From positions 30,750-94,749 of the forward strand of contig DAIDGV010000024.1 in NCBI GenBank assembly GCA_027452205.1: a stretch of DNA of 64,000 nt. The letters are read 5' to 3'. Positions 5,369 to 33,603 of this stretch are shown here, piece by piece. Position 1 is the stretch's first letter, and the number at the start of each line of letters is the position of its first letter. Origin of the DNA: a candidate division FCPU426 bacterium. GTDB lineage: Bacteria > Oederibacteriota > Muellerivitia > Muellerivitales > Muellerivitaceae. A model generated the notes under the pieces. The model was given only the letters and a program-made list of their open reading frames with translations. It did no database searches and was not told where the DNA came from. The position numbers were made by a program, and so were the translations under genes.

Positions 5369-6340
5369 TTAGCGAGGATCAAGATTCTCGAACAAGGAAC
5401 TGATCGACTGTTCATTGTGGATACGCATGATCGCATCCCCCAGCAAGGGGCCCACCGGGAGGACCGTGATCTTAGGGACCCGTTTCTCCGGAGGGAGGGG
5501 AATACTATCGGTAATGATGACTTCTTTCAAGGGCGAATTTTGCAGGTTTTGCACGGCGTTTCCCGACAAAATGCCATGGCTACAGCAGGCATAGACCTCG
5601 GTAGCGCCGGCCTTCAGGATGGCCCCAACCGCTTGTACCATCGACCCGCCGGTGGAGATCATGTCGTCGGGAATAAGGACTGAACGGCCCTTCACTTCCC
5701 CGATCAGGTTCATCACTTCCACCTCGTTGGGCCCCCAGCGGCGCTTATCGACCACCGCCAAGTCCGTCCCCAGGGCCTTCGCGAAGGCGCGGGCCATCTT
5801 GATACCGCCCACGTCCGGGGAAACTACCATCAGGTCCTTCAGGTTCTTCTGGCGGACATAGTTCACGATGACCGGCAGGGCGTAAAGATGGTCCACCGGG
5901 ATGTCGAAGAAACCCTGGATCTGCTGGGCGTGAAGGTCCATCGAAAGCACCCGGTCCGCGCCGGCGGTGGTGATGATATTGGCCATCAGTTTGGCCGTAA
6001 TGGGCACCCGGGGCTGGTCTTTGCGGTCCTGGCGGGCGTAACCGTAATAAGGAAGCACGGCAGTGATACGGCGGGCGGAGGCCCGGCGGAAAGCGTCAAT
6101 CATGATGAGCAATTCGATGACGTTATCGTTCACCGGCGGGCAGGTAGGTTGGACGATGAAGATGTCCCGGCCGCGCACATCCTCGTTGATCTTGATGCGG
6201 ATCTCGCCCTCGGAAAAGCGGCTGACCATCAGGTCGCCCAGGGGAACTTTCAGGAACTCACAGATCTTCTTGGCCAGGTCCGGGTTGGCGGTCCCGCTGA
6301 AGATTTTCAACCCATTGATCGCAGTGGAGCTCGGATTCAT
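5369..6340 (-). CDS. prs: ribose-phosphate pyrophosphokinase (PRPP synthetase)
   Basis: Canonical Prs motifs are present (…IFSGTANPDLAKKI…, …PYYGYARQDRK…, …DLHAQQIQGFFDIPVDHL…). The start is most likely the internal ATG at 6340, which is preceded by AAGGAA. The ORF track instead extends the frame to 6433. Confidence 0.88.
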   Translation of the reverse strand: MNPSSTAINGLKIFSGTANPDLAKKICEFLKVPLGDLMVSRFSEGEIRIKINEDVRGRDIFIVQPTCPPVNDNVIELLIMIDAFRRASARRITAVLPYYGYARQDRKDQPRVPITAKLMANIITTAGADRVLSMDLHAQQIQGFFDIPVDHLYALPVIVNYVRQKNLKDLMVVSPDVGGIKMARAFAKALGTDLAVVDKRRWGPNEVEVMNLIGEVKGRSVLIPDDMISTGGSMVQAVGAILKAGATEVYACCSHGILSGNAVQNLQNSPLKEVIITDSIPLPPEKRVPKITVLPVGPLLGDAIMRIHNEQSISSLFENLDPR

Positions 6341-6464
6341 GTTCGTTCCTTGTTCTTGATTGACCGACAAATGGCTGAGACCCACGGAGGTGGAGAAAGG
6401 AGGGTATCGTGGGGAAACAGAGTTTAAACCCAAAAAGCGGCGAATTCAAAAATTTTATGCGGCT

Positions 6465-7866: not shown

Positions 7867-9966
7867 TCAGGGCTTTGGAACGGGGCTTTTCATCGTTAAA
7901 AGCAGGTTCGGTAAGACCTGTTGTCTCTTCACCGGTGTCGGTCTTAAGTGATAGATCGCCCAGGGTCCTTGCTCATAGACCAGGTCCGTCCGGTGCTGGA
8001 TCAAATCGTCCAACTTGGCCCACTCTTCGTTCTTTAAAGGAAAGTAATCCGGGTCCTGTTCGATCAATCGTTGGCCTTCTTGTCCCGAGACCACCAGGTC
8101 GTCGATGCCCATTTCATAAAGGCGGTGATAGATCCCCTCACCGTCTTTTTCTTGACCGGCCAATTCCCTGAGGGCTTGTTGGTCATAGATCGTATTGGCG
8201 TAAAAATCCCGGCGGTAATAAAGACTGCGAGAATCCCCCACCAAAAGGATCCGGTCCCGAGGGGCGGTCACTTTCCCCACCGCCTCGGCGAGGCCATAGT
8301 AAGAAAGGGTCTGGGGATTGGTCTCCAAATATCCCGCACGGTTCTTGACCCCCAGGACCATCTGATCCCATTGGTAATAATCCACGCTTACACGCAAGAG
8401 TGAAAGGAAGCTGAGGGCGCCGAAAACCACCAGGAACCAGGACCACCATCGCACTTTGTTTTTTTCAAGCAGATCCAGGGCCAGTCCGATCTCGACCACC
8501 AACAACACGCAAGCCGGTATGGCCAGCCTCAATTGATGGGATACCGCGAAGCAAAGGAGAAGATAAGAAAGACCGGTCCAGCCCACCCAACTGGAAGAAG
8601 AGGAAGATGGCCGGGCAATGAACCAAAGGGGCACAAAAGCCAGGAGCAACGGTCCCACGGTTTTATCCAGGCTTCGGGTAAAAATTTGGACGACCCAATC
8701 ACCGAAAGAATGATCCATCACCCAGGGGCTCTCATGAGCGATCATCAATGCCTGTTCTTGTACTTTGGAAAAATACATTCCGCCGAACCATTGGGATAGA
8801 TAGGGATAAACCGGATTGCCCGTATAAGCCGCGTTCTTGAGGAACCAGGGCATCACGCACAGACCCACCAGCACGAGGGTGCCGATCCAGCGTTTCCAGG
8901 GCAGGGCAAACCCGGACCGGGCCCAGACCACGAAGCCCGCCAGCCAAACCACTCCCACCCCCAGGACAGCGGTTTGTTTAACCGTCCAAGCGGCGCCACC
9001 CATCAACCCGGCCAACATGAACCAATTCTCCCTGCCTTCGGCCATGGCTTTGCGGAGGGAATAAACGAAGAGAAGGATGAAAAAAGCTAGCACCACGTCA
9101 TTTTGGGCGGACCAGACCGTGGTCGAAAAAAGCGGCAGGAAGAGAATCGAAAGACCCGTTAAAACGCCCGTTGTTCGGCTTCCCTCTTCAGCCACCCAGG
9201 CCCCCGCGGCCAGGGACGTCCAAAAGAGGAAAAAGATATTCAAACCCTTGGCCGCTTCGGTTCCCTGCAGGACCATTCCGTTCCAAAGGTACAGTTCCGC
9301 GCCGAAAGGGAAACAGGTGAAAAAGTTGCCGGGGGCCTCGGCCAAACCGTGATGGAAACCCCAAAAACTGAGGGTCGAAAGATGATAGACCAGTCCGTCA
9401 AAATAGGTCACGGGAGTCCAGATCTGGGCCCATTCCAGGGCGATAAAACCGCAGGCCAGCGCGATCAACCAAGGAGTACTCGTGATATCCAGCTTCCACG
9501 CAAGCGTCCCCTTCAAGACCGGGTCTTCCCGCCACAGATCGACCAAAGCCCAAAGACAAAAAACCGTGACCAGTACCACATCGAAAGGACCGTTCCAAAG
9601 ACCGTTCAGCCCCGATCCCATCCAGAACAGATCGAGAAAAACCACTCCCAAGGCCGTTTCAAAACAAAAGCGGAGGACTTTCGAACCGAAGTTCAGACCC
9701 AGTAATCGCAAACCATATCGGCCCAACCGCCAAGTGGCCAAAGCCACCGAGCCGCAGACCAAGGTTGCCTTTAAAGACCCCCAAAGGTTGGAAGCCCAAA
9801 GAACTCCTTGGGCCTGTCTGAGGTCTTGGGACAGGACCGAAATAAAGGACAGGTCCAGGGAACGCGGCGAGAAATAGAGAAAAAGGGCAAAAAGACACCA
9901 AAGGGAGAATATCCAAACGCCAAAAAGGCCCAATGGCTTGCGGATGGATTCGAGGAGATTTCGCAA
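7867..9966 (-). CDS. hypothetical large polytopic membrane protein, possibly a glycosyltransferase or polymerase
   Basis: 699 aa; at least 12 hydrophobic helices followed by a C-terminal soluble domain of about 200 aa. No firm family assignment from sequence alone. Confidence 0.5.
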   Translation of the reverse strand: MRNLLESIRKPLGLFGVWIFSLWCLFALFLYFSPRSLDLSFISVLSQDLRQAQGVLWASNLWGSLKATLVCGSVALATWRLGRYGLRLLGLNFGSKVLRFCFETALGVVFLDLFWMGSGLNGLWNGPFDVVLVTVFCLWALVDLWREDPVLKGTLAWKLDITSTPWLIALACGFIALEWAQIWTPVTYFDGLVYHLSTLSFWGFHHGLAEAPGNFFTCFPFGAELYLWNGMVLQGTEAAKGLNIFFLFWTSLAAGAWVAEEGSRTTGVLTGLSILFLPLFSTTVWSAQNDVVLAFFILLFVYSLRKAMAEGRENWFMLAGLMGGAAWTVKQTAVLGVGVVWLAGFVVWARSGFALPWKRWIGTLVLVGLCVMPWFLKNAAYTGNPVYPYLSQWFGGMYFSKVQEQALMIAHESPWVMDHSFGDWVVQIFTRSLDKTVGPLLLAFVPLWFIARPSSSSSSWVGWTGLSYLLLCFAVSHQLRLAIPACVLLVVEIGLALDLLEKNKVRWWSWFLVVFGALSFLSLLRVSVDYYQWDQMVLGVKNRAGYLETNPQTLSYYGLAEAVGKVTAPRDRILLVGDSRSLYYRRDFYANTIYDQQALRELAGQEKDGEGIYHRLYEMGIDDLVVSGQEGQRLIEQDPDYFPLKNEEWAKLDDLIQHRTDLVYEQGPWAIYHLRPTPVKRQQVLPNLLLTMKSPVPKP

Positions 9967-24221: not shown

Positions 24222-25961
24222 TTATTGCCCGTCCGTTGTGGCCGATTGATACTTTTTCAGTTCCGCGGCAAAATCCTTGTTATCCGGGTCCAGTTCCGCC
24301 GCCTTTTTCCATTGGAGTACCGCGTCGTCGGACTTGCCCAATTTAAGGTCGGTCTGCCCCAAGTGGTCATAAACGACCGCGTCATCTTTCTCTTTTTTCT
24401 CCGGCAAGAGGTCGATGGATTTCTCAAATTCCTCTTTGGCGGCCGGATATTTTCCCTGGCGGAAATAAACCCAACCCAAACTATCCATGTAGTAAGCGTT
24501 CTTCGGGTCCAACTTCAGGGCTGTCAGCACGTATTTTTCTGCGTCTGGCAGATTCTCCCCCCGATCAGCGTAAGAATAGCCTAAATAGTTATAGGCTTCA
24601 GCGTTGTCCGGCTGGACCTGGATGACCTTCTTCATGCATTCCATGGCTTCACTGAACTTTTGGTTTTTTTCCAAAACAATGGCCAGATTGAAATAGGCTT
24701 GTACCAGGGTGCCTGTGTTGTAATCGGCTTGTTGTTTGCTCTTAAAAGTCTGTTCGGCTGAGATCACCTTGCGGTAATCCGCTTCCGCTTCGTCCATCTT
24801 TTCCTTTTCCTGGGCCATCATGCCCTTCATCAGGACCAGCTCCGGATGGTTCGGATTGGCTTTCAATCCATCCTCGATCGTCTTTTCACTCAAGTCGTCC
24901 TTCTTTTCTTTGTTGTAAAGGATCCCCAATCGAACCCAAGCGTCCACCGACTTGTTGTCATTCTCGAGGATCGCTTTGACCTGGGCCTCGGCGTTGACGA
25001 AGTCGTTCATTTCTTCATAGACCGCCGATAAGCGGAAACGCACCAACGCGTTGGTCGGCTGGCTTTCCAAAAGCACCTTAAAGGACTCGATGGCCTTTTC
25101 ATAATTCTTTAAATTAAAATAACAAAGACCGATGTAATCATAGACCGCCGTGTCCTTGGAGTTGAGCTTGGAGTAGGTTTGGAAAGACTCCAAAGCCTTG
25201 GCATATTCCTTCTGGTTGTAATGGATCTCGCCCAAAGCCAAAAAGGTCTGTGCGCTTTGAGGATTGATCTTGGCCAAACTTTCATAGGTTGCGATGGCAT
25301 CCTCGGGTTTTTGGTCCAGTTCATAGACCAACCCCAGCGAGGTATAGGCCGGCTCCAATTCCGGATCGATCTCGATGGCTCTTTTGAAAGCCTCCTCGGC
25401 CTTGGCCACTTGGTTGCCACGGGTATAGATAAGACCCATGTTGTAATAGACTCCCGCGGTCTTGGGGTTGTTGATAAGGATCTTTTCATAGGTGTTCAGG
25501 GCGTCTTCGAGGCGGTTCTGATTGGCCAGGACCCCCGCCAAGTAATATTCAGCGTCCATGTTGTTCGGGTCGATCTCCAAGACCTTGCTGTATTCCTTTT
25601 GAGCCTTTCCATATTCACCCTGGGAAGCGAAAAGATTGGCCAACAGTAACCGGGTCTTGATGTTATTGGGTTCAAGCCGGATGGACTTCTGGAGTTCTTC
25701 CTCGGTCTTATATTCGAGGCCTTCCACGTAATAGTGCGAGGCTAATCTTTCGTGGATCGTCGAGGAAGCGGGGTCGTAACGGGCCGCTTGGTCGAATTCC
25801 ACGGTGGCCCGGCCGCCATCTTGGTAAAGCTGGGCGTAAAGCCCGCAAGCGTAATGCCAATAGGCCCGGGGATCGACCTTAAGACTATCGTCGCCTTTGG
25901 CTCGCAGGGGTTGGGCGCAAAGAAGGAGGACTAAAAGGAGGCTCTTTTTCATAAAATCCAA
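24222..25961 (-). CDS. secreted tetratricopeptide-repeat (TPR) protein
   Basis: 579 aa; signal peptide and more than 12 consecutive 34-residue TPR units (W-LG-Y/A-F-A-P pattern). Confidence 0.8.
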   Translation of the reverse strand: MDFMKKSLLLVLLLCAQPLRAKGDDSLKVDPRAYWHYACGLYAQLYQDGGRATVEFDQAARYDPASSTIHERLASHYYVEGLEYKTEEELQKSIRLEPNNIKTRLLLANLFASQGEYGKAQKEYSKVLEIDPNNMDAEYYLAGVLANQNRLEDALNTYEKILINNPKTAGVYYNMGLIYTRGNQVAKAEEAFKRAIEIDPELEPAYTSLGLVYELDQKPEDAIATYESLAKINPQSAQTFLALGEIHYNQKEYAKALESFQTYSKLNSKDTAVYDYIGLCYFNLKNYEKAIESFKVLLESQPTNALVRFRLSAVYEEMNDFVNAEAQVKAILENDNKSVDAWVRLGILYNKEKKDDLSEKTIEDGLKANPNHPELVLMKGMMAQEKEKMDEAEADYRKVISAEQTFKSKQQADYNTGTLVQAYFNLAIVLEKNQKFSEAMECMKKVIQVQPDNAEAYNYLGYSYADRGENLPDAEKYVLTALKLDPKNAYYMDSLGWVYFRQGKYPAAKEEFEKSIDLLPEKKEKDDAVVYDHLGQTDLKLGKSDDAVLQWKKAAELDPDNKDFAAELKKYQSATTDGQ

Positions 25962-26043: not shown

Positions 26044-27351
26044 TTAGTGGTTCAAAAGGGCTTGGGCGGTCTGGATTCCCTGCTCCAGGGCCGATTCCAT
26101 GCTGCCATATTCCCACCGACCATACCGTCCCACCGAATACACATCCTGCTTTTGATAAAAACTCAAAAGCTCCTCAACGATCCCGTTACGAACATCGTCA
26201 TAAATGACATAAGCGCCCGGCAAGTCCAGATCGACCCGGGTCACAAGCTGCTTTTGGGAAGTGATCCAACCCAGTTCTTTCAGTTTTTTCACCGCATGCC
26301 GGCCTAATACCGCTGGATCTGGACGGCCACCCCGGTAAGAGAATTCCACATAGAGGGAATAATGGTTCTTGGGAGCCGCTGTCGGCACACAAGCGCTGAC
26401 CGAACCTGCCCGATGGAATTGAAATTCCTCCTCAGGGAAATAGACCCAACTATAAGGGATGGGCTGTTTCCCTTTGAGACCAAAATTGATGTTATAGATC
26501 GAAGTAGCTTTGAGTTCTTGGGCAGCCTTTCGAAGTCGCGAGGGCATGCCCTGAGTTAGCCGGACCAACTGCGGTAAAGGCAGGCTAGAGACCAAGTTCT
26601 GATAGTCGATCGTGAACCCTGACCCTAGGTAAGCTTGTTTCTTTTGAAGGTCCAGCCGATCCAAGCTGGCGCCCCTCCACAGATAAGGAAGTTCCGACGC
26701 GATGGTTTCGGGAAGCACCGAGATTCCGCCTTGGTCCGGATAAAGAAAAGTCGCATTGTAACCCGTATCCGACCATTTTTTCCTCAAGGCGCCCTCCACC
26801 ACTTCTTTTACCTTGGGCGATGGTACGAAGCGACCCATCCAATGGGTCGTCAGTTTCTCTAATGGGAATTTCCATAACTTTTGGTTGTAGGGGAACATGA
26901 AATGCTTCGAGATACCGTGTCCGAAGGAATCCACGCACCATTCCCGGAAGTTAGCCGGGGCCCGGGAGCTTGAATTGAACCGCCGATGAAGCTGAGCCTC
27001 CAAATAACCCAGGACGTTGTCCTTGGCGACCGAGGATGGTAACCCCGCGTTGTTCTCTTGGTAGGGATATTCGCTATAGGACCTTTGGCTATAGATCACC
27101 GCGTGACGGTGCCGCGTCTTGAAACTTTTACCGATGAACCGCTCCGCCCACCGATGGATCTCCGGTTTATGGAAATGCAAGAAATGCCCGGTGTAGTCGA
27201 AAGTGAACCCGTGATCCATGATGGTGCGGCACAGGCCGCCGAGGTTCTTTTGTTTTTCGACCAAGAGATAGGGTTTGAACTTGTCCGCTAGTTCCCGGGC
27301 GCAAGAAAGCCCCGCTAAACCACCCCCTGCGATCAGCGTTTCGACCTTCAT
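26044..27351 (-). CDS. FAD-dependent flavoprotein of the UDP-galactopyranose mutase / amine-oxidase superfamily
   Basis: 435 aa; N-terminal GGGLAGLSCA Rossmann motif. …TGHFLHF… resembles the UGM G-x-H-x-F-H segment. C-terminal …GRYGRWEYGSM… resembles the UGM terminal motif. Confidence 0.5.
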   Translation of the reverse strand: MKVETLIAGGGLAGLSCARELADKFKPYLLVEKQKNLGGLCRTIMDHGFTFDYTGHFLHFHKPEIHRWAERFIGKSFKTRHRHAVIYSQRSYSEYPYQENNAGLPSSVAKDNVLGYLEAQLHRRFNSSSRAPANFREWCVDSFGHGISKHFMFPYNQKLWKFPLEKLTTHWMGRFVPSPKVKEVVEGALRKKWSDTGYNATFLYPDQGGISVLPETIASELPYLWRGASLDRLDLQKKQAYLGSGFTIDYQNLVSSLPLPQLVRLTQGMPSRLRKAAQELKATSIYNINFGLKGKQPIPYSWVYFPEEEFQFHRAGSVSACVPTAAPKNHYSLYVEFSYRGGRPDPAVLGRHAVKKLKELGWITSQKQLVTRVDLDLPGAYVIYDDVRNGIVEELLSFYQKQDVYSVGRYGRWEYGSMESALEQGIQTAQALLNH

Positions 27352-28439
27352 TTTTTTTGGCCTTTTTTTGGCAGGCTGGGAGGTTCTTTCAGGAATATCT
27401 GGAAGCGACTTTCCTTGATCTTGACGATACCTTCATCCATTGGAATGAGCGCGACAAAAAGGGTGACCAGCATCAACGCGAAGAAGAACACCAGGATAAA
27501 GACTAGGGCCCTTTTTTCGGAAAGACGAACAAGAAATCCAGCCATGAGGACCAGGATAAAAGAGACGAACCAAAGGGTATGGACCGTCTGTTTGACCGTG
27601 AAGCCGATCTTGCGAAGCCGTAGGGCTAAATGATCATTGGAGCCCCGGAACATGGACCGGCCCCGGATGAAACGGATCATCATGACCAACGCGGTATCGT
27701 AGAGGGGAACGGCCAGGATAAGGACTGGAGCGCAAAGACCCACGATATTGTTCTGGGTATAACCATGGCCCATCGCTAGCGCCGAGAGGGTGAACCCTAA
27801 AAAGAGCGCGCCCGAGTCCCCCATATAAATACGGGCCGGTTGGTAATTGTAAGGCAAAAAACCCAGCACGCTGCCCGCCAAGACCGCGGCGGCCAATGGC
27901 ACATAACTATGCGCCGCCAAGGAAGGGACCATCACAAAACCTAAACAGGCGATGGCCACCACTCCGCTGGAAAGCCCATCCATGATGTCGATGATGTTCA
28001 CCGCGTTGGTCACCGCCAACACCCAAAAGATGGTCATCGCATAGGTCAGGATGGGATGGCTTGGAAGGAACTCGATCTTGAGGCCGAAGACGATCAAAAG
28101 GACCGCCGCCACGATCTCAAAGAAGAACTTCATGGCCGGGCTCAGGGAGAAAAGATCATCCACTAGACCCATCAAGGCCACGACCGTGCCGCCGATCAGG
28201 ATAGCGAAAAGGGCTTTGGTATCCGGCGGCGGGGCCAGGCTGAGCGTGCCGAAGAGGACTAGAAGGAACGAAAAATAAATAGCCAGGCCGCCCAAATAGG
28301 GGATGGGGGCTGTATGTTTTTTGAGTTGTCCGCTGGGCGCATCCAGGAATTGGGACTTCAGGGCGACCTTGCGGAAGACGGGGGTAAGCCCCAAGGAAAG
28401 GACGAAGGCGCAGATAAAGGTGATCCAGTTGGTGTTCAT
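27348..28439 (-). CDS. polyprenyl-phosphate HexNAc-1-phosphate transferase (WecA/MraY family, GT4 PNPT)
   Basis: Polytopic protein with MraY/WecA-like motifs (…IPYLGGLAI…, …NAVNIIDIMDGL…). The likely start is the ATG at 28439, which has a GGGAGG Shine-Dalgarno. The ORF track instead extends to a TTG at 28472. Confidence 0.8.
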   Translation of the reverse strand: MNTNWITFICAFVLSLGLTPVFRKVALKSQFLDAPSGQLKKHTAPIPYLGGLAIYFSFLLVLFGTLSLAPPPDTKALFAILIGGTVVALMGLVDDLFSLSPAMKFFFEIVAAVLLIVFGLKIEFLPSHPILTYAMTIFWVLAVTNAVNIIDIMDGLSSGVVAIACLGFVMVPSLAAHSYVPLAAAVLAGSVLGFLPYNYQPARIYMGDSGALFLGFTLSALAMGHGYTQNNIVGLCAPVLILAVPLYDTALVMMIRFIRGRSMFRGSNDHLALRLRKIGFTVKQTVHTLWFVSFILVLMAGFLVRLSEKRALVFILVFFFALMLVTLFVALIPMDEGIVKIKESRFQIFLKEPPSLPKKGQKK

Positions 28440-28559
28440 AGGTGTCCTCCCTGGTCTTTCGGCCACGGGCAATGGGAATCACAAAGGCATTAGAACTATA
28501 ACATAGGGCTTAAAGGCTTAACGGAACGAAAGGCTTTTTCCGGAAGCTTTTTGAGGCAT

Positions 28560-28596
28560 AAAAAAAGCCCCGGTGGGTCGGACCGAGGCTTGGAGG
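28560..28596 (-). terminator. terminator-like hairpin (bEBP gene terminator and/or attenuator in the wecA-like leader)
   Basis: Minus-strand RNA AAGCCUCGG-UCCGACCCAC-CGGGGCUU followed by UUUUUUU. It lies between the sigma-54 promoter and the wecA-like start codon. Confidence 0.5.
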
Positions 28597-28663
28597 CTGT
28601 TTAGATTGTTGATTCGTTTGAAAACCATCCAGTTGTCGCTGGCCGTTTTCACCTTTATTTAAA

Positions 28664-28678
28664 GCAACCATCGTGCCA
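28664..28678 (-). promoter_or_regulatory. sigma-54 (-24/-12) promoter
   Basis: Minus-strand TGGCACGATGGTTGCT matches the consensus TGGCAC-N5-TTGC exactly. It points toward the wecA-like gene. Confidence 0.65.
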
Positions 28679-28750: not shown

Positions 28751-28800
28751 GTGTAAAATATATTAACACTATTTACACTATGTATCAATAATTTACACTT
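28751..28800. promoter_or_regulatory. AT-rich repeat cluster, candidate enhancer (UAS) for the adjacent bEBP
   Basis: Four copies of GTGTAAA(T)/GTGTTAA in about 50 bp, including the inverted pair GTGTAAAATATATTAACAC. It lies 70-120 bp upstream of the sigma-54 promoter and immediately 3' of the activator gene. Confidence 0.5.
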
Positions 28801-30688
28801 ACGACTCCGTATGAATACCGTATTTACGGATCTTTTGATACAGCGTGGGTCGGCTGATCCCTAGCCGTTGGGCCGCTTCCTTCTTGTTGTAGCGGGATTC
28901 TTGGAGCACTTTCAGGATCATTTCTCGTTCCACCGATTGGAGTACCCCCGAAGAAGGCAAGGTCCTTTCTTCTACCGGGTTCGAGGCCACCAACAACGGC
29001 GAACCAGTCAGTTCGGCGGGCAAATGTTCGGGCCGGATGACCACGTCATCGTTCAGTGTCACGATCCGTTCGACCACGTTCTCCAGCTCACGCACATTTC
29101 CCGGCCAGCGGTATTGCTGCATGAGGACCAAGGCTTCTTTCGAAACTCCTTCGAACCGGGTCTGGCGTTTTGACTTCATTTTATCCAGGAAGTATCGGAT
29201 CAAAAGTTGAAGATCACCCTCTCTGGCGCGTAGCGGTGGCATCTCCACGACAATAACATTGAGCCGGTAAAAAAGGTCCTCACGGAAACGGCCGGTCTGG
29301 ATGGCTTGTTTAAGGTCGCGGTTGGTGGCGGCAATGACCCGTATATCCACCTTTACCGTCTCGTTCCCGCCTACCCGTTCCAGTTGGCGCTCTTGGAGTA
29401 CCCGTAAAAGTTTGACTTGGGTCGAAAGGGATATTTCCCCGATCTCGTCCAAAAAGACGGACCCCTGGTTGGCCGCCTCGAACTTACCTTGTTTTTGTCC
29501 CAGGGCTCCGGTGAAGGAACCCTTTTCATGCCCGAAGAGCTCGCTTTCCAACAGGGATTCGCTCAGTGCCGAACAGTTGATCGCCACGAAAGGTTTGTCA
29601 TGCCTGGCCGACAGCTCGTGAATGGACCGGGCCACTAATTCTTTTCCCGTTCCGTTCTCGCCCAAAATGAGTACCGTGGCGTCACTGGCGGCGGCCCGTT
29701 TGATGAGTTCTTGGATCTGTTTCATCGATCGGCTTTCGCCGACTAGATGTGTCTCTTCCCCGCGCCGTTCAGGCTTGGCGGCCGCCGCAGAGACCATGGA
29801 TTTGGACAAAGAGAAAAGGATCGAAGCCGCGTCCTTGGAGGACTTCACGAATTCCTCGTAATCCTGTTTCATCTGGCCCGTAAGGCCCTCGTGATAATAG
29901 ACCTGTCCCAGGTTATAGATAGCGTTCTTATGGTCCGGGTCTTTTTGAAGAACGGACTTGAATTCGACAATGGCTTTTTCCATTTCATTCTTCTTGAAAT
30001 AACAGACCCCCAAGTCATTCTGCAAATTCAGCTTTTCGGCGCCGTCGGGCAATATCTTCAGGGCTTTTTTATAGACCGATATGGCCTCATCGTAACGCTC
30101 CAGGGTCATCAAACAGTCGCCCAAGCCACCCAGGGCTAGGACGTTCTTGGGGCCTGTCTTTAAAGCGATCTCATATTGTTCGAGCGCGTTCTCGACATCG
30201 CCCCGCTGTTTGAAGAGCATCCCCAGGTTTAACCGGCATTGCAGTTGTAAACTCTCTTGAGTATGGAAAAGGCCTAAATAAAAACTGCCCGGAGTCAATG
30301 GATGAATGAGCCGGAGGGTCTCAGAAAAGGCGAACATGGCATCCCCCACCCGCCCCCGTTTGAGATGGATAAGACCCATGTTGAACCGGACATCCAATAA
30401 ATCGTGCCGCAGCTTGAGGGCGGTTTCGTAATGATCCAAAGCGTCATCATCGCGTTGTAAGTGGAAAGAAGCGTGCCCCATGTCCCGGAAGGCGAAGAAA
30501 CTATTCGGTCTTTTCTTGAGCGTGGCGCGAAAAAGCTCCAGGGCTTGGGCATATTCGCCTTGTTCGAAGGCATCCATGCCTTCGACCGTAGTCTTATCCA
30601 AGGGTTCATAGGCGATACCGCAGACCGGGCAAAAACGGAAAGCTTCTTGCGTACGCTCGCCACATTCCCGGCAAAGGAAGCTGTCCAT
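28799..30688 (-). CDS. sigma-54-dependent transcriptional activator (bEBP) with N-terminal zinc ribbon and TPR sensor region
   Basis: 629 aa. N-terminal CRECG…CPVCG, followed by about 300 aa of TPR repeats. AAA+ sigma-54 activator core (GESRSMKQI…[14 protein letters not shown]…[21 protein letters not shown]-like). C-terminal Fis-type HTH. Confidence 0.85.
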
Positions 30689-30690
30689 GG

Positions 30691-31074
30691 TCAGCCCCTT
30701 CCCCTGGGCTTTTTAGTCGCCTTTTTGGAGGCCATCTCGTTCTTTTTGCCTGTCAATTGGCGGATCTGGAGGGTGGCTAGTTTGGCGCCCTGGGGTAGGT
30801 TTGTATATCGCTTCTCCAGCTTCTGATACCAAGCCAAGGCTTCTTTGGTCTTCCCTTCTTTTTGGAGTTTGTAACCCTTTCGGAACTCCTTTTCGAACTC
30901 GATGAACTTCTCTTGCTCTTCCCGAGAAAGTTTGGTGGTCCAAAGATGGGCGAATTCGGTCAGCGCCGCCATAGTCATGAGATAGATGAAGTAGGGGGGG
31001 AAAGCGTACGCGGCCAAAAGGGCGATGATAGTCAGCCCGCCCCAATCCTCTTTTTTTAAGATGGTCTTAGCCAT
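30691..31074 (-). CDS. hypothetical small membrane protein co-transcribed with the bEBP
   Basis: One TM helix ([25 protein letters not shown]) then a Lys/Glu-rich tail. The stop overlaps the bEBP start (ATGA). The start is uncertain: ATG at 31074 with GAGGGG upstream, or the longer ORF starting at 31143. Confidence 0.45.
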
Positions 31075-31442
31075 GTACCCCTCGTGTAAAAGAACCTGAC
31101 ACCTAAAGACGCAAAAGTGGCTTGCTACAGATTGAACAGTCACATTCTACGCCCGAGCTAAGGGTGCTTGAAGCTTTGGTTTTTGATTTTGCCTTAAAAA
31201 CCCAGTCTCATCCCTGCAAGCCCCCAGACAATGGCGTAAAAATGCAGCGATTCCGTAGCGCAAGGGGGCGCCTCTTGGAAAGCTTCAGTCCCCTGTTTTT
31301 TGCCAAAACCGTGTCGCTCATAACTAAGGACCCACGGGGGGATGGGTGGAGCAGTAGTCTCTCGGCATTCGTAATTTTCTGATCCACGCAGGTGCGTGGC
31401 GGGCTTAAAGGGATGAGGCTAAAAGAAAAAGTCTGCACAAAA

Positions 31443-31474
31443 CAAAAAAGCCCCGGTGGAATTCCACCGAGGCT
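31443..31474 (-). terminator. rho-independent terminator downstream of pnp
   Basis: Minus-strand GCCUCGGUGG-AAUU-CCACCGGGGC followed by UUUUUUGUUUU. Confidence 0.7.
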
Positions 31475-31494
31475 TTGGTTTTACGAGCGGATCG

Positions 31495-33603
31495 TTAATT
31501 CTTCTTATAATCCGCGATATTCAGGCCCAAGGCTTCCTTGCGGGAAAGCTTGATCTTCTTGGTTTTCGGGTCGATCCCGATGCACTTCACCAAGAGTTCA
31601 TCACCTTCCTTCAGGACGTCTTCCACCCGTTCCACCCGCTTGTTGTCCAGCTGGGAAACGTGCACCAGACCGTCTGTACCCGGAAGGATCTCGACAAAAG
31701 CACCGAAGTCCATGATCTTCTTGACCGTACCGAAGTAGACCTTACCTTCTTCCGCTTCAGCCATAAGGCCGTTGATGAAGTTTTGGGCGTTCTCGATATC
31801 TTTGCCATTGGCTGAAGCGATGGCGACCGTACCATCGTCCTCCACGTTGATATCGACCTTATAGTCTTCTTGGATCTTCTTGATCATCGCACCGCCCTTA
31901 CCGATGATGTCGCGGATCTTGTCCACGGGGATCTTCATCGAAACGATCCGGGGAGCGTAATCCGACATTTTGGTGCGAGGCGCCGACAGGCTCTTATCCA
32001 TGATATCCAAGATGGTCAAGCGGCCTTGCTTGGCCTGGGTCAGGCCCTTTTCAACGACCTCAAAAGTGAGGCCGGTGATCTTGATGTCCATTTGGATGGC
32101 AGTGATGCCTTTACGGGTACCGGCCACTTTGAAGTCCATATCACCGAAATGATCTTCCAAACCTTGGATGTCGGTCAGGATAGCGTACTTGGACAGGTCT
32201 TCATTGGAGACCAAACCTAGAGCCACACCCGCGCAAGCGCTCTTTAAAGGAACGCCGGCGTCCATCAACGACAAAGAGCCGCCGCAGACCGAGGCCATGG
32301 AGGACGAACCGTTCGATTCCAGGATATCCGAGGTCACTTGGATGGTGTAAGGGAACGAATCCGCCGGTGGCAGCAGAGGCTCCAACGCGCGTTCGGCCAA
32401 ATTGCCATGGCCGATCTCACGACGGCCCGGACTCATGATGCGCTTGATCTCGCCCACCGAGTAAGGCGGGAAATTGTAGTGAAGCATGAAACGCTTCTTT
32501 TGTTCGCCTTCGAGCTCTTCGAGGATCTGTTGATCGTCCTTCGTGCCCAGGGTCGAGACCACCAAAGCCTGGGTCTGACCACGGGTAAAGAGCGCCGAAC
32601 CGTGGGTCCGGGGCAATATCCCGACTTCGGTCGTGATCGGGCGGAATTCATCGAATTTCCGGCCGTCTTGGCGTTCATGACGGTCCAAAATGGCCTCGCG
32701 GACCAGGTCGGACTCGATGGAATGAAGGATCGATTTGATGTCCTTCTCCTTTTCCGGGTACTTTTCCTTCAAGGCCGTGACGGTCTCTTTAGCGACCGCG
32801 CTGATGGCGTCTTGACGCTTGAGTTTGTCCTTTTCCGCCATGGCGGTCTTCATCTTCACCAAAGCGAAGCCCTTCACATCCGCGACCAAAGCCGCGTCCG
32901 GCAAGACCAGGGTCAAGGCGCGTTTCGATTTCCCGGCGCGCTTCACCAGTTCATCCTGCAGGTCGATGATTTTTTGGCATTCTTTGTGGGCCAGTTTGAT
33001 GGCTTCGAGAACGACCGATTCGGACTCTTCTTTCGCCCCGCCTTCGACCATGACGATGGCCTTACGACTAGCTGCCACGATCAGATCGAGAGTGCTGTTT
33101 TCCATCTGCTTGAATGTCGGGTTGACGACCAAGTCGCCGTTCACCCGGCCAACGCGCACGCAGCCAAAACGATCGGCCACGGGGATATCCGAGACCGCCA
33201 AAGCGGCGGAAGCGGCGGAAACCGCCAAAACATCGGAATTGTTCTCTTGGTCCGACGAGACCACCGTGGCCATCAACTGGACTTCATTGAAGAAGCCATC
33301 CGGGAAAAGCGGACGGATCGGACGGTCGATCAAGCGGGAGGTCAAGATCTCGGTCGTCCGGGGACGGCCTTCGCGCTTGAACCAGCCGCCGGGGATACGA
33401 CCCGCAGCCGACGAGCGTTCGCGGTATTCAACGGTGAGCGGGAAAAAATCCTTGCCGGGCATCGGTTCTTTTGCCCCGACGACGGCGACAATGACGACGG
33501 TGTCGCCATATTGGGCGACGATCGAACCATCGGCTTGCTTGGCCATACGGCCGGTCTCAAATGACAGCGTGGTGTGGCCTAGCGTAGTGCTGACACGTTC
33601 CAT
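31495..33603 (-). CDS. pnp: polynucleotide phosphorylase
   Basis: 702 aa; two RNase PH domains, KH and S1 domains (…GRRFMLHYNFPP…, …KFGAVRIA-like C-terminus). Confidence 0.92.
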   Translation of the reverse strand: MERVSTTLGHTTLSFETGRMAKQADGSIVAQYGDTVVIVAVVGAKEPMPGKDFFPLTVEYRERSSAAGRIPGGWFKREGRPRTTEILTSRLIDRPIRPLFPDGFFNEVQLMATVVSSDQENNSDVLAVSAASAALAVSDIPVADRFGCVRVGRVNGDLVVNPTFKQMENSTLDLIVAASRKAIVMVEGGAKEESESVVLEAIKLAHKECQKIIDLQDELVKRAGKSKRALTLVLPDAALVADVKGFALVKMKTAMAEKDKLKRQDAISAVAKETVTALKEKYPEKEKDIKSILHSIESDLVREAILDRHERQDGRKFDEFRPITTEVGILPRTHGSALFTRGQTQALVVSTLGTKDDQQILEELEGEQKKRFMLHYNFPPYSVGEIKRIMSPGRREIGHGNLAERALEPLLPPADSFPYTIQVTSDILESNGSSSMASVCGGSLSLMDAGVPLKSACAGVALGLVSNEDLSKYAILTDIQGLEDHFGDMDFKVAGTRKGITAIQMDIKITGLTFEVVEKGLTQAKQGRLTILDIMDKSLSAPRTKMSDYAPRIVSMKIPVDKIRDIIGKGGAMIKKIQEDYKVDINVEDDGTVAIASANGKDIENAQNFINGLMAEAEEGKVYFGTVKKIMDFGAFVEILPGTDGLVHVSQLDNKRVERVEDVLKEGDELLVKCIGIDPKTKKIKLSRKEALGLNIADYKKN

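Follow-up and report, generated by a model that had tools for sequence, protein, structure and literature searches.

A sigma-54 activator with a putative zinc-ribbon and TPR input, its small membrane partner gene and an adjacent candidate small RNA in candidate division FCPU426

Introduction

Sigma-54 activators, also called bacterial enhancer-binding proteins (bEBPs), offer a textbook case of the conversion of a signal into the assembly of an AAA+ machine. Control of such an activator by a partner protein is established for the pairs PspF/PspA, NifA/NifL, and FleQ/FleN. The bEBP inputs described so far are receiver, PAS/V4R/ACT, or GAF domains, or separate soluble inhibitors. In a published classification, their regulatory domains are grouped as response regulator/PRD, PAS/V4R/ACT, GAF, or absent, and the tetratricopeptide repeat (TPR) is not tabulated (PMC7175178). 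Moreover, our full-text literature searches returned no characterised TPR-type bEBP. Here, we analysed a DNA stretch of 64,000 nucleotides (hereafter, the window) from a candidate division FCPU426 bacterium (NCBI GenBank assembly GCA_027452205.1, contig DAIDGV010000024.1, positions 30,750 to 94,749 of the forward strand), which carries on its minus strand a gene for a 629-aa bEBP (28799..30688), directly preceded by the gene of a small membrane protein (hereafter, the partner) and followed by a candidate small RNA (sRNA) of ~93 nt. We consider it fairly probable that these elements belong to a five-part module conserved in FCPU426/Firestonebacteria, i.e., an operon, the recognition of a DNA dyad, an RNA output, autoregulation, and an input by protein contact.

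The logic that we propose resembles that of PspF-PspA/PspB/PspC, NifA-NifL, FleQ-FleN, and HrpRS-HrpV, in which the AAA+ activator is set by protein contact and not by phosphorylation. In the Psp system, a membrane signal is transmitted by small integral membrane proteins, and the AAA+ core is homologous to that of the activator described here. However, PspF lacks an N-terminal domain and is inhibited by PspA, a coiled-coil protein that is soluble or peripheral, whereas the FCPU426 activator possesses its own zinc-ribbon–TPR module. The partner also departs from Psp, since it is a predicted integral membrane protein of 127 aa that contains a single TPR-like unit and matches no family of Pfam or NCBIfam, and since it appears to be co-transcribed upstream of the activator, outside the sigma-54 regulon. 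We found neither a PspA-family inhibitor nor PspB/PspC near the activator gene, whose neighbours are pnp, the small protein gene, a GT4 transferase gene, an amine-oxidase-like gene, and a TPR protein gene. With NtrC1, DctD, and ZraR (group 1 in PMC7175178), the activator has in common the AAA+ core, the GAFTGA-type loop, and the C-terminal Fis helix-turn-helix (HTH). As in these systems, its dyads lie ~100 bp upstream of the promoter, and a helical linker precedes the AAA+ domain (NtrC1 and DctD). On the contrary, it has neither their receiver domain nor a phospho-acceptor.

Genes of bEBPs with an adjacent sigma-54-dependent small RNA are known in Vibrio (luxO-qrr1) and in enterobacteria (glrKR-glmY). 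In Myxococcus, the bEBP gene nla19 is followed downstream by pxr, an sRNA gene with a sigma-54 promoter (PMC5568312). The module shares with these three systems a structured small RNA with its own sigma-54 promoter and terminator beside the bEBP gene. However, nla19, luxO, and glrKR encode response regulators, unlike the module, and their binding sites and RNA sequences are unrelated to those described here. The combination of a membrane anchor, a TPR array, and a rubredoxin-type Cys4 site is found in LapB (YciM), which acts in envelope homeostasis at the cytoplasmic face of the membrane. LapB gathers these three parts in one polypeptide and is a proteolysis adaptor, whereas the module splits the anchor and the TPR/zinc part over two proteins and its TPR protein bears an AAA+ core and an HTH; no homology between the two has been demonstrated. 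Finally, in RseA-sigma E and PtsG-Mlc, a small or integral membrane protein, either encoded together with a soluble transcription factor or acting on it, keeps this factor inactive at the membrane until a signal is received. The factor held is there a sigma-70-type factor or a ROK repressor, and here it would be an AAA+ activator, sequestration being in our case a hypothesis. The module is a member of none of these specific systems (Psp, NifA-NifL, FleQ-FleN, nla19-pxr, luxO-qrr1, or glrKR-glmY).

A TPR/zinc-ribbon input paired with a dedicated membrane protein, for which we found no characterisation in the literature, is here conserved across an uncultured phylum. The locus also defines a motif for DNA recognition and brings a small-RNA family that is a new candidate. 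Its compact predicted regulon, in which a single enhancer, promoter, small RNA, and autoregulatory site are counted, makes it attractive for heterologous reconstitution.

The Activator and Its Input Module

A preliminary description of this DNA, made from the sequence alone, had proposed that the 629-aa protein is a bEBP composed of a zinc ribbon, TPRs, an AAA+ core, and a Fis-type HTH, without any receiver, GAF, or PAS domain. Our analysis bears out both parts of this proposal, the zinc ribbon being a probable one. Using Pfam, we recovered Sigma54_activat (PF00158, residues 315-481, E 3.1e-73), AAA_lid_14 (residues 487-562, E 2e-25), and HTH_8 (residues 584-623, E 4.6e-15). The AAA+ sigma-54 interaction domain with its lid (residues 315-562) is encoded at 29003..29746 and the Fis-type DNA-binding domain at 28820..28939, both on the minus strand. 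In the family alignments, Walker A (GENGTGKE) and Walker B (FLDEIGE) are invariant columns, and the GSFTGA loop occupies residues 390-395, of which G390, F392, T393, G394, and A395 are invariant in 61 sequences. The closest solved structures are those of bEBPs, with ZraR (1ojl) as the best match (E 3.5e-90), followed by FleQ (~1e-80) and PspF chains (~1e-66). As judged from its sequence, the protein is a bEBP in every feature that can be read in this way, i.e., the AAA+ core, the loop, the HTH, the upstream sites, and the promoter.

The part that precedes the AAA+ core is of another kind. Many TPR families (TPR_1, TPR_2, TPR_11, TPR_16, and related ones) match across residues ~36-290, TPR_2 with an E-value of 3e-32 and TPR_1 with 2e-31, four stretches of each scoring alone. 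We built an AlphaFold2 (AF2) model on 61 homologues, with a mean predicted local distance difference test score (pLDDT) of 87.6. In this model, residues 1-30 form short beta-strands and residues 32-303 are all-helical; residues 32-267 (29888..30595, minus strand) consist of 14 paired helices, i.e., ~7 pairs, with a pLDDT above 90, interrupted by a conserved non-helical insert at residues 128-143, in which Y137, L138, G139, and L140 are nearly invariant. Consensus-TPR crystal structures match residues 152-268, and among the structure matches of the activator no solved structure unites a sigma-54 AAA+ core with TPRs. The N-terminal residues 1-30 (30599..30688, minus strand) carry the C6-x2-C9...C20-x2-C23 motif of a zinc ribbon (CxxC-N10-CxxC), whose four cysteines are conserved across the family; Zn_Ribbon_1 matches them with an E-value of 4e-5 and 23.6 bits, just under its cut-off of 25 bits. 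Between the TPRs and the AAA+ core lies a helical linker (residues 268-314; 29747..29887, minus strand; alignments A1 and A6), conserved as DYEEF.K.S..AASILF.LSKSMV and then ending in a short disordered stretch. The model places helices at 271-283 and 287-303 (pLDDT ~70) and a disordered hinge at 305-310 (pLDDT below 50). The AASILF.LSKSMV segment of this linker occupies the place of the regulatory coiled coil of NtrC1/DctD.

No receiver (PF00072), GAF, PAS, or V4R domain was detected by Pfam in the activator, whose residues 1-303 are accounted for by ribbon strands and helices, and no receiver, GAF, or PAS family appears in the precomputed Pfam lists of 86 full-length homologues. The pipeline label 'NtrC family response regulator' is therefore a misnomer for this family, and the names that homologues bear at JGI, e.g., 'response regulator' or 'PAS, ATPase and Fis domain', are of a generic nature. 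NCBIfam equivalogs match the activator only over residues ~300-626 and all below their cut-offs; among these models, those of NifA and NorR align only from residue ~298 on.

The Membrane Partner

The partner open reading frame (ORF), on the minus strand, extends in the ORF list over 30691-31143. We favour its ATG at 31074 (30691..31074, 127 aa) because a GAGGGG Shine-Dalgarno sequence precedes it and because the homologue alignments open at residues 1-3. The GTG at 31143, which corresponds to the upper coordinate given in the preliminary description, is the less likely start. A total of 193 database homologues of 115-145 aa were found, and none of them contains a Pfam domain. Among 28 orthologues, substitutions are distributed over the three codon positions as 0.26/0.20/0.54, third positions varying 2-2.7 times more than the first two, and the small ORF is thus, on this sequence evidence, one that encodes a real protein. 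No Pfam or NCBIfam family covers it, TPR_1 matching with an E-value of 0.16, insignificant alone.

A hydrophobic stretch at residues ~11-47 is almost invariant (alignment A4), notably at W11, G12, L14, T15, L19, F25, P26, P27, Y28, F29, A36, L38, T39, L44, and W45. This conservation suggests that the partner senses something in the membrane or touches another membrane protein. In the AF2 model of the partner, the helix is broken at P26-P27, inside the invariant FPPYF. The membrane segment could be one long kinked helix or a helical hairpin, the two being equally consistent with the model, so that the single-pass topology initially assigned to the protein is compatible with the first form and loses its exclusivity with the second. 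The remainder of that assignment, a membrane protein of ~130 aa with a charged tail, agrees with the 127 aa, the hydrophobic segment, and the variable basic tail formed by the last ~15 residues, but it had left out the conserved helices that precede this tail at residues ~58-112. Indeed, the partner-family profile matches, through its positions 64-100, multiple repeats of long proteins called as TPR by Pfam, and residues ~58-112 are predicted to form one TPR-like unit with a capping helix. TPR-type proteins are frequent among the weak Foldseek matches of the partner model in the PDB, none of these matches being usable; the LapB chains 4zlh and 9up5 appear among its weak structural matches, with insignificant E-values above 2.

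A Conserved Gene Pair

To sample orthologues, species-representative genomes were scanned with the activator N-terminal domain (8-sequence alignment), which yielded 27 orthologous loci; their named records are metagenome-assembled genomes of candidate division FCPU426 or Candidatus Firestonebacteria. The small gene lies directly upstream of the activator gene in all 27, with a partner identity to the window copy of 52-77%, and of 39% in the most distant one (L027). The window junction reads GGC-TGA-CC-ATG-GAC, where the small-gene stop codon (30691-30693) is separated by 2 nt from the activator ATG (30686-30688). The ATGA overlap previously reported for this junction is therefore not that of the window; -4 nt overlaps (ATGA or GTGA) occur in nine relatives, while the gap is +2 or +3 nt in the 16 other loci of the 25 evaluable ones, as in the window. 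Such junctions point to a two-gene operon. Within the phylum, the whole rpsO-pnp-small-bEBP-wecA-amine oxidase-TPR-ispE block is syntenic, and adjacency there is weak evidence when taken alone.

More weight comes from seven distant contexts in which the pair is also present (L034, L036, L037, L040, L041, L042, and L043). The activators of L034, L036, and L037 are 38-44% identical to that of the window and each has a homologous small membrane gene directly upstream. The L036 neighbourhood is otherwise unrelated, with a secretin gene upstream, parA/parB downstream, and no pnp; in L037, an iron-containing alcohol dehydrogenase (Fe-ADH) gene is inserted just upstream of the small gene and the pair is retained. 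L040, L041, and L042 were found through distant members of the small-protein family, and the gene that follows opens with the zinc ribbon and/or the TPR region of the activator family; the same arrangement is seen in L043. The two genes overlap by 4 nt in L037 and L043, and are separated by ~130 nt in L034 and L036. Since the pair is retained in these distant relatives, the two genes form a conserved pair. An absence of the coupled membrane gene beside homologous activators elsewhere, which would have spoken against the association, was thus not what the loci revealed.

Three Dyads and One Sigma-54 Promoter

The preliminary description had noticed a copy of GTGTAAAA before the small gene and had suggested autoregulation, while allowing that a single 8-mer could be a chance match. 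This copy is present at 31084-31091 and is one half of a 19-bp dyad, TGTAA-N7-TTACA. With up to one mismatch, the window contains exactly three such dyads, of which two make up the enhancer and the third precedes the small gene. Enhancer dyad 1 (28780..28798) begins right after the activator stop codon, ~119 bp upstream of the promoter, and enhancer dyad 2 (28751..28769) lies 29 bp from it and ~90 bp upstream of the promoter. The single dyad (31084..31102, GTGTAAAAGAACCTGACAC on the plus strand), a putative autoregulatory site, is located 8 nt before the small-gene Shine-Dalgarno sequence; its left half is degenerate in the window, GTGTCAG on the coding strand. As one half of so rare a dyad, the 8-mer is more than a chance match, and a dyad kept upstream of the small gene in 25 of the 27 loci, usually just past the pnp terminator, adds weight to the idea of autoregulation. 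The relatives conserve all three positions, the enhancer pair lying downstream of the activator gene with a spacing of 29-30 bp.

The sigma-54 promoter, TGGCACGATGGTTGC (28664..28678, minus strand), has a perfect -24/-12 consensus and is the only exact match in the window. Of the 24 FCPU426 loci that could be evaluated, 21 have TGGCAY-N5-TTGC at the corresponding place; in L010 and L013, it lies further downstream, past an insertion. The distance from the start of the promoter-proximal dyad to this motif is usually 89-91 bp; the variants, at 80 or 99-102 bp, differ by about one helical turn. Given this arrangement, the recognition of the dyads by the activator and the activation of this promoter are strongly suggested by the comparison of the loci.

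Upstream of the small gene, no sigma-54 promoter was found, and a sigma-70 consensus scan of 31075-31440 gave no minus-strand match for the operon. The small-gene dyad is most simply read as an autoregulatory operator, probably repressive, by comparison with NtrC acting at sigma-70 promoters. We also observed that the spacer from the pnp terminator to the small gene (31104-31446) is longer in the window, with ~370 nt, than in most relatives, with ~65-130 nt.

The Product of the Sigma-54 Promoter

Downstream of the promoter, in the 326-nt spacer that separates the activator ORF from the wecA-like gene, conserved sequence, RNAalifold structure, a covariance model, and a terminator scan delimit a candidate sRNA of ~93 nt (28559..28652, minus strand), whose 5' end is deduced from the geometry of the promoter. 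RNAalifold predicts a 5' hairpin with compensatory stem substitutions, a single-stranded region with AAACGAAUCAA and C(A/U)(C/G)CCUCC, and a terminator. The conserved segments are AAACGAAUCAA and CUCACCUCC. The 3' hairpin is rich in G+C, has a conserved CCGACCC loop, and is followed by 7-8 U; the copy that the terminator scan locates in the window (28565-28591) has a stem of 10 pairs, including 6 G-C, and a run of 7 T.

A search with the covariance model (R1) detected a single copy in the window (28559-28663), others in 23 of the 27 FCPU426 loci, and 11 more in metagenome contigs. The metagenome copies are next to the activator gene in each case where that flank can be read, and lie between this gene and the wecA-like gene where both flanks are present. 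In L006, neither the RNA nor wecA was seen downstream within the contig. In the model-based alignment, 91% of the cells are paired versus 83% in shuffles, and 8 of the 13 pairs show changes on both sides, a count that none of 500 shuffles reaches and that collapses in slid controls; these covariation counts are subject to the relatedness of the sequences and to the fitting of the alignment by the model. A search of Rfam 15 (including Qrr, GlmY/Z, and Pxr) up to an E-value of 10 returned three chance-level matches to unrelated families (E 1.8-7.3), all far below the gathering scores. No conserved ORF was found in the element, the 53-aa ORF listed there starting inside the promoter with an unconserved ATG.

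The element thus presents the features by which an sRNA is recognised at the sequence level, i.e., its own promoter, an intrinsic terminator, a conserved structure, and no conserved ORF. In the clade of the window, the sigma-54 product is most likely a small RNA. Its C-rich single strand suggests that it pairs with Shine-Dalgarno regions.

A different product occupies the same position in deep-branching relatives. Indeed, in L027, L036, L037, and L043, the sigma-54 promoter past the activator gene drives a conserved ORF of 62 aa (VFLYDC.VKMGH.GSGR..ER...) with its own terminator (L027:8020-8205; L036 about 6190-6380; L037:6037-6225; L043:2312-2437, the last copy being of 41 aa as called). This protein family comprises 65 clusters, without a Pfam domain in any of them, and no homologue was found in the window. 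The 62-aa gene is followed by unrelated genes, e.g., Carb_kinase or parA, and not by wecA. With an RNA unit in the clade of the window and a terminated 62-aa gene in the deep relatives, the sigma-54 unit is predicted to be a small self-contained transcription unit in every lineage.

Terminator sequences similar to that of the RNA were also seen elsewhere. The pnp terminator (31447-31476, minus strand), AAAGCCTCGGTGGAATTCCACCGGGGCTTT, and the RNA terminator (28565-28591, minus strand), AAGCCTCGGTCCGACCCACCGGGGCTT, have almost identical stem arms, and the covariance model gives weak matches on the pnp terminators of L013 and L025. A 21-nt terminator core, CYCGGTCCGACCCACCGRGGC, is moreover present in seven metagenome contigs (L049, L050, L051, L055, L056, L058, and L061) from which the RNA and all the genes of the module are absent.

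Proposed Mechanism and Alternative Explanations

In the mechanism that we favour, the two-gene operon would deliver the small membrane-embedded partner and then, 2 nt downstream, the activator, whose input would be the zinc ribbon and the ~7 TPRs, joined to the AAA+ core by the conserved helical linker. Its Fis-type HTH would recognise the dyad GTGTAAA-N5-TTTACAC and, once assembled on the enhancer, i.e., two dyads 29 bp apart and ~90 bp upstream of the perfect sigma-54 promoter, the activator would drive the ~93-nt RNA. This RNA would end at the strong intrinsic terminator, expose its single-stranded, C-rich, anti-Shine-Dalgarno-like sequence, and most likely base-pair with the ribosome-binding sites of mRNAs. 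At the third dyad, with no sigma-54 promoter near, the activator would control how much of itself and of its partner is made, probably by repression.

The input itself would be given by protein-protein contact and not by phosphorylation. The TPR-like unit of the partner, presumed cytoplasmic, or its membrane-proximal helix may bind the TPR/zinc-ribbon module of the activator, and the bound activator would be inactive, either tethered to the membrane or unable to assemble, until the partner is changed by a cue from the membrane or the envelope. Contact could be made through the lone TPR unit of the partner and, on the side of the activator, through the nearly invariant YYLGLF loop and the AASILF.LSKSMV segment of the linker. 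That this 'split' membrane sensor constitutes a new mode of bEBP control, with a phylum-specific RNA, or the 62-aa protein in deeper relatives, as its sole direct output, is a possibility that we advance tentatively. If true, it would add a class of regulatory domain beyond the response regulator, PAS/V4R, GAF, and domain-less bEBPs, and a protein effector would have been swapped for an RNA effector under one conserved regulator.

Several observations weigh against this mechanism or parts of it. No match was obtained when the 64 kb of the window were searched for the RpoN box of an rpoN gene, and a few activator homologues are devoid of the zinc-ribbon motif. The partner model is of moderate quality (pLDDT 64), Foldseek found nothing significant for it in the PDB (best E 0.39), and its TPR-like unit is placed in the cytoplasm only because of a positive-inside argument. 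A remote relative of the partner, P0306 (L038:4001-5092, E 2e-4), has the membrane module in two copies, in fusion with PilZ, which binds cyclic di-GMP; its gene lies next to GGDEF and Fe-ADH genes and without an adjacent activator, so that the membrane module can work in other settings. On the RNA side, target prediction on the initiation regions of six neighbouring genes in 21 loci gave no consistent best target. In addition, L010 (~7875-8800) and L013 (~7878-8930) have an insertion of ~1 kb between the activator stop codon and the enhancer dyads, after which the enhancer, the promoter, and the RNA have stayed beside wecA and not beside the activator gene, and some read-through from the sigma-54 promoter into wecA may occur.

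The insertions in L010 and L013 favour another view of the output, in which the sigma-54 promoter drives the wecA-like envelope operon, as the preliminary description had supposed, and the ~93-nt element is its 5' leader or attenuator, with a terminator that is conditionally read through. Sigma-54 often controls functions of the cell exterior, the element is oriented like wecA, whose start is ~120 nt further downstream, all RNA copies whose flanks can be read sit between the activator gene and wecA, and in L010 and L013 it is to wecA that the regulatory unit is still attached. We nevertheless regard this view as unlikely. The terminator is strong and is conserved with compensatory changes, the consensus fold shows no alternative anti-terminator pairing, and the sigma-54 unit of the deep relatives is a monocistronic 62-aa gene followed by unrelated genes. 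Moreover, an extended -10-like sequence, TGTTATAGT (28495..28503, minus strand), lies between the RNA terminator and the wecA-like gene, and (T/C)TGTTATA(G/T)T is found in most loci ~40-60 nt past the terminator, ahead of this gene; it is likely a separate, sigma-70-type promoter of the wecA-like operon. With a terminated RNA on one side and an extended -10 of its own on the other, this operon is probably not a direct sigma-54 target, which corrects the earlier view of the neighbouring envelope genes as the regulated output.

The role of the partner can also be understood otherwise. It may not regulate the activator at all, their adjacency being that of an inherited operon, and the TPR/zinc-ribbon module would then sense a soluble protein or peptide, or a redox state or metal through its four cysteines. 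Four-Cys zinc sites are known as thiol switches in other regulators, e.g., the ZAS anti-sigma factors; the synteny of the block makes adjacency within the phylum weak, and P0306 occurs without an activator. We find this quite improbable, since the pair is kept where the other synteny is lost (L036, and L037 with its inserted Fe-ADH gene), the junction remains within -4 to +3 nt in the window and in the 25 FCPU426 loci that could be evaluated, and one upstream dyad is common to both genes. Some members without the cysteines, such as the P0084-like one of L042, keep the partner gene. Another reading makes the partner a positive co-sensor or assembly platform that recruits the activator to the membrane for oligomerisation or modification there, or a protein removed by regulated proteolysis on the model of RseA/sigma-E, the helix-breaking FPPYF then marking the substrate of an intramembrane protease. 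The almost invariant membrane segment exceeds the needs of a simple anchor, and the tight translational coupling suggests a stoichiometric complex; on the other hand, the neighbouring genes include no conserved protease gene or other conserved partner, and we hold this reading to be doubtful. The available evidence does not discriminate the sign of the regulation exerted by the partner, and the inhibitory contact of the split sensor is the form that we retain.

Neighbouring Genes

The genes of this region are all on the minus strand. The block begins with rpsO, followed by pnp (31495-33603), and continues past the activator and the RNA with the wecA-like gene (27348-28439), which codes for a GT4/WecA-MraY-family transferase, a gene for an amine-oxidase/UDP-galactopyranose-mutase-like flavoprotein (26044-27351), and a gene for a TPR protein of 579 aa (24222-25961), ispE being next in order. 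A one-mismatch sigma-54-like motif, TGGCATTACGCTTGC, is located at 25845-25859 (minus strand), inside the 5' end of the TPR-protein ORF; three such motifs were found in the window against 4.2 expected, which is no more than chance. The 579-aa protein resembles PEP-CTERM PrsT and PilW-type TPR lipoproteins, with scores below the cut-offs except for PilW. Its gene and those of the GT4 transferase and the flavoprotein make up a block that is conserved and envelope-related.

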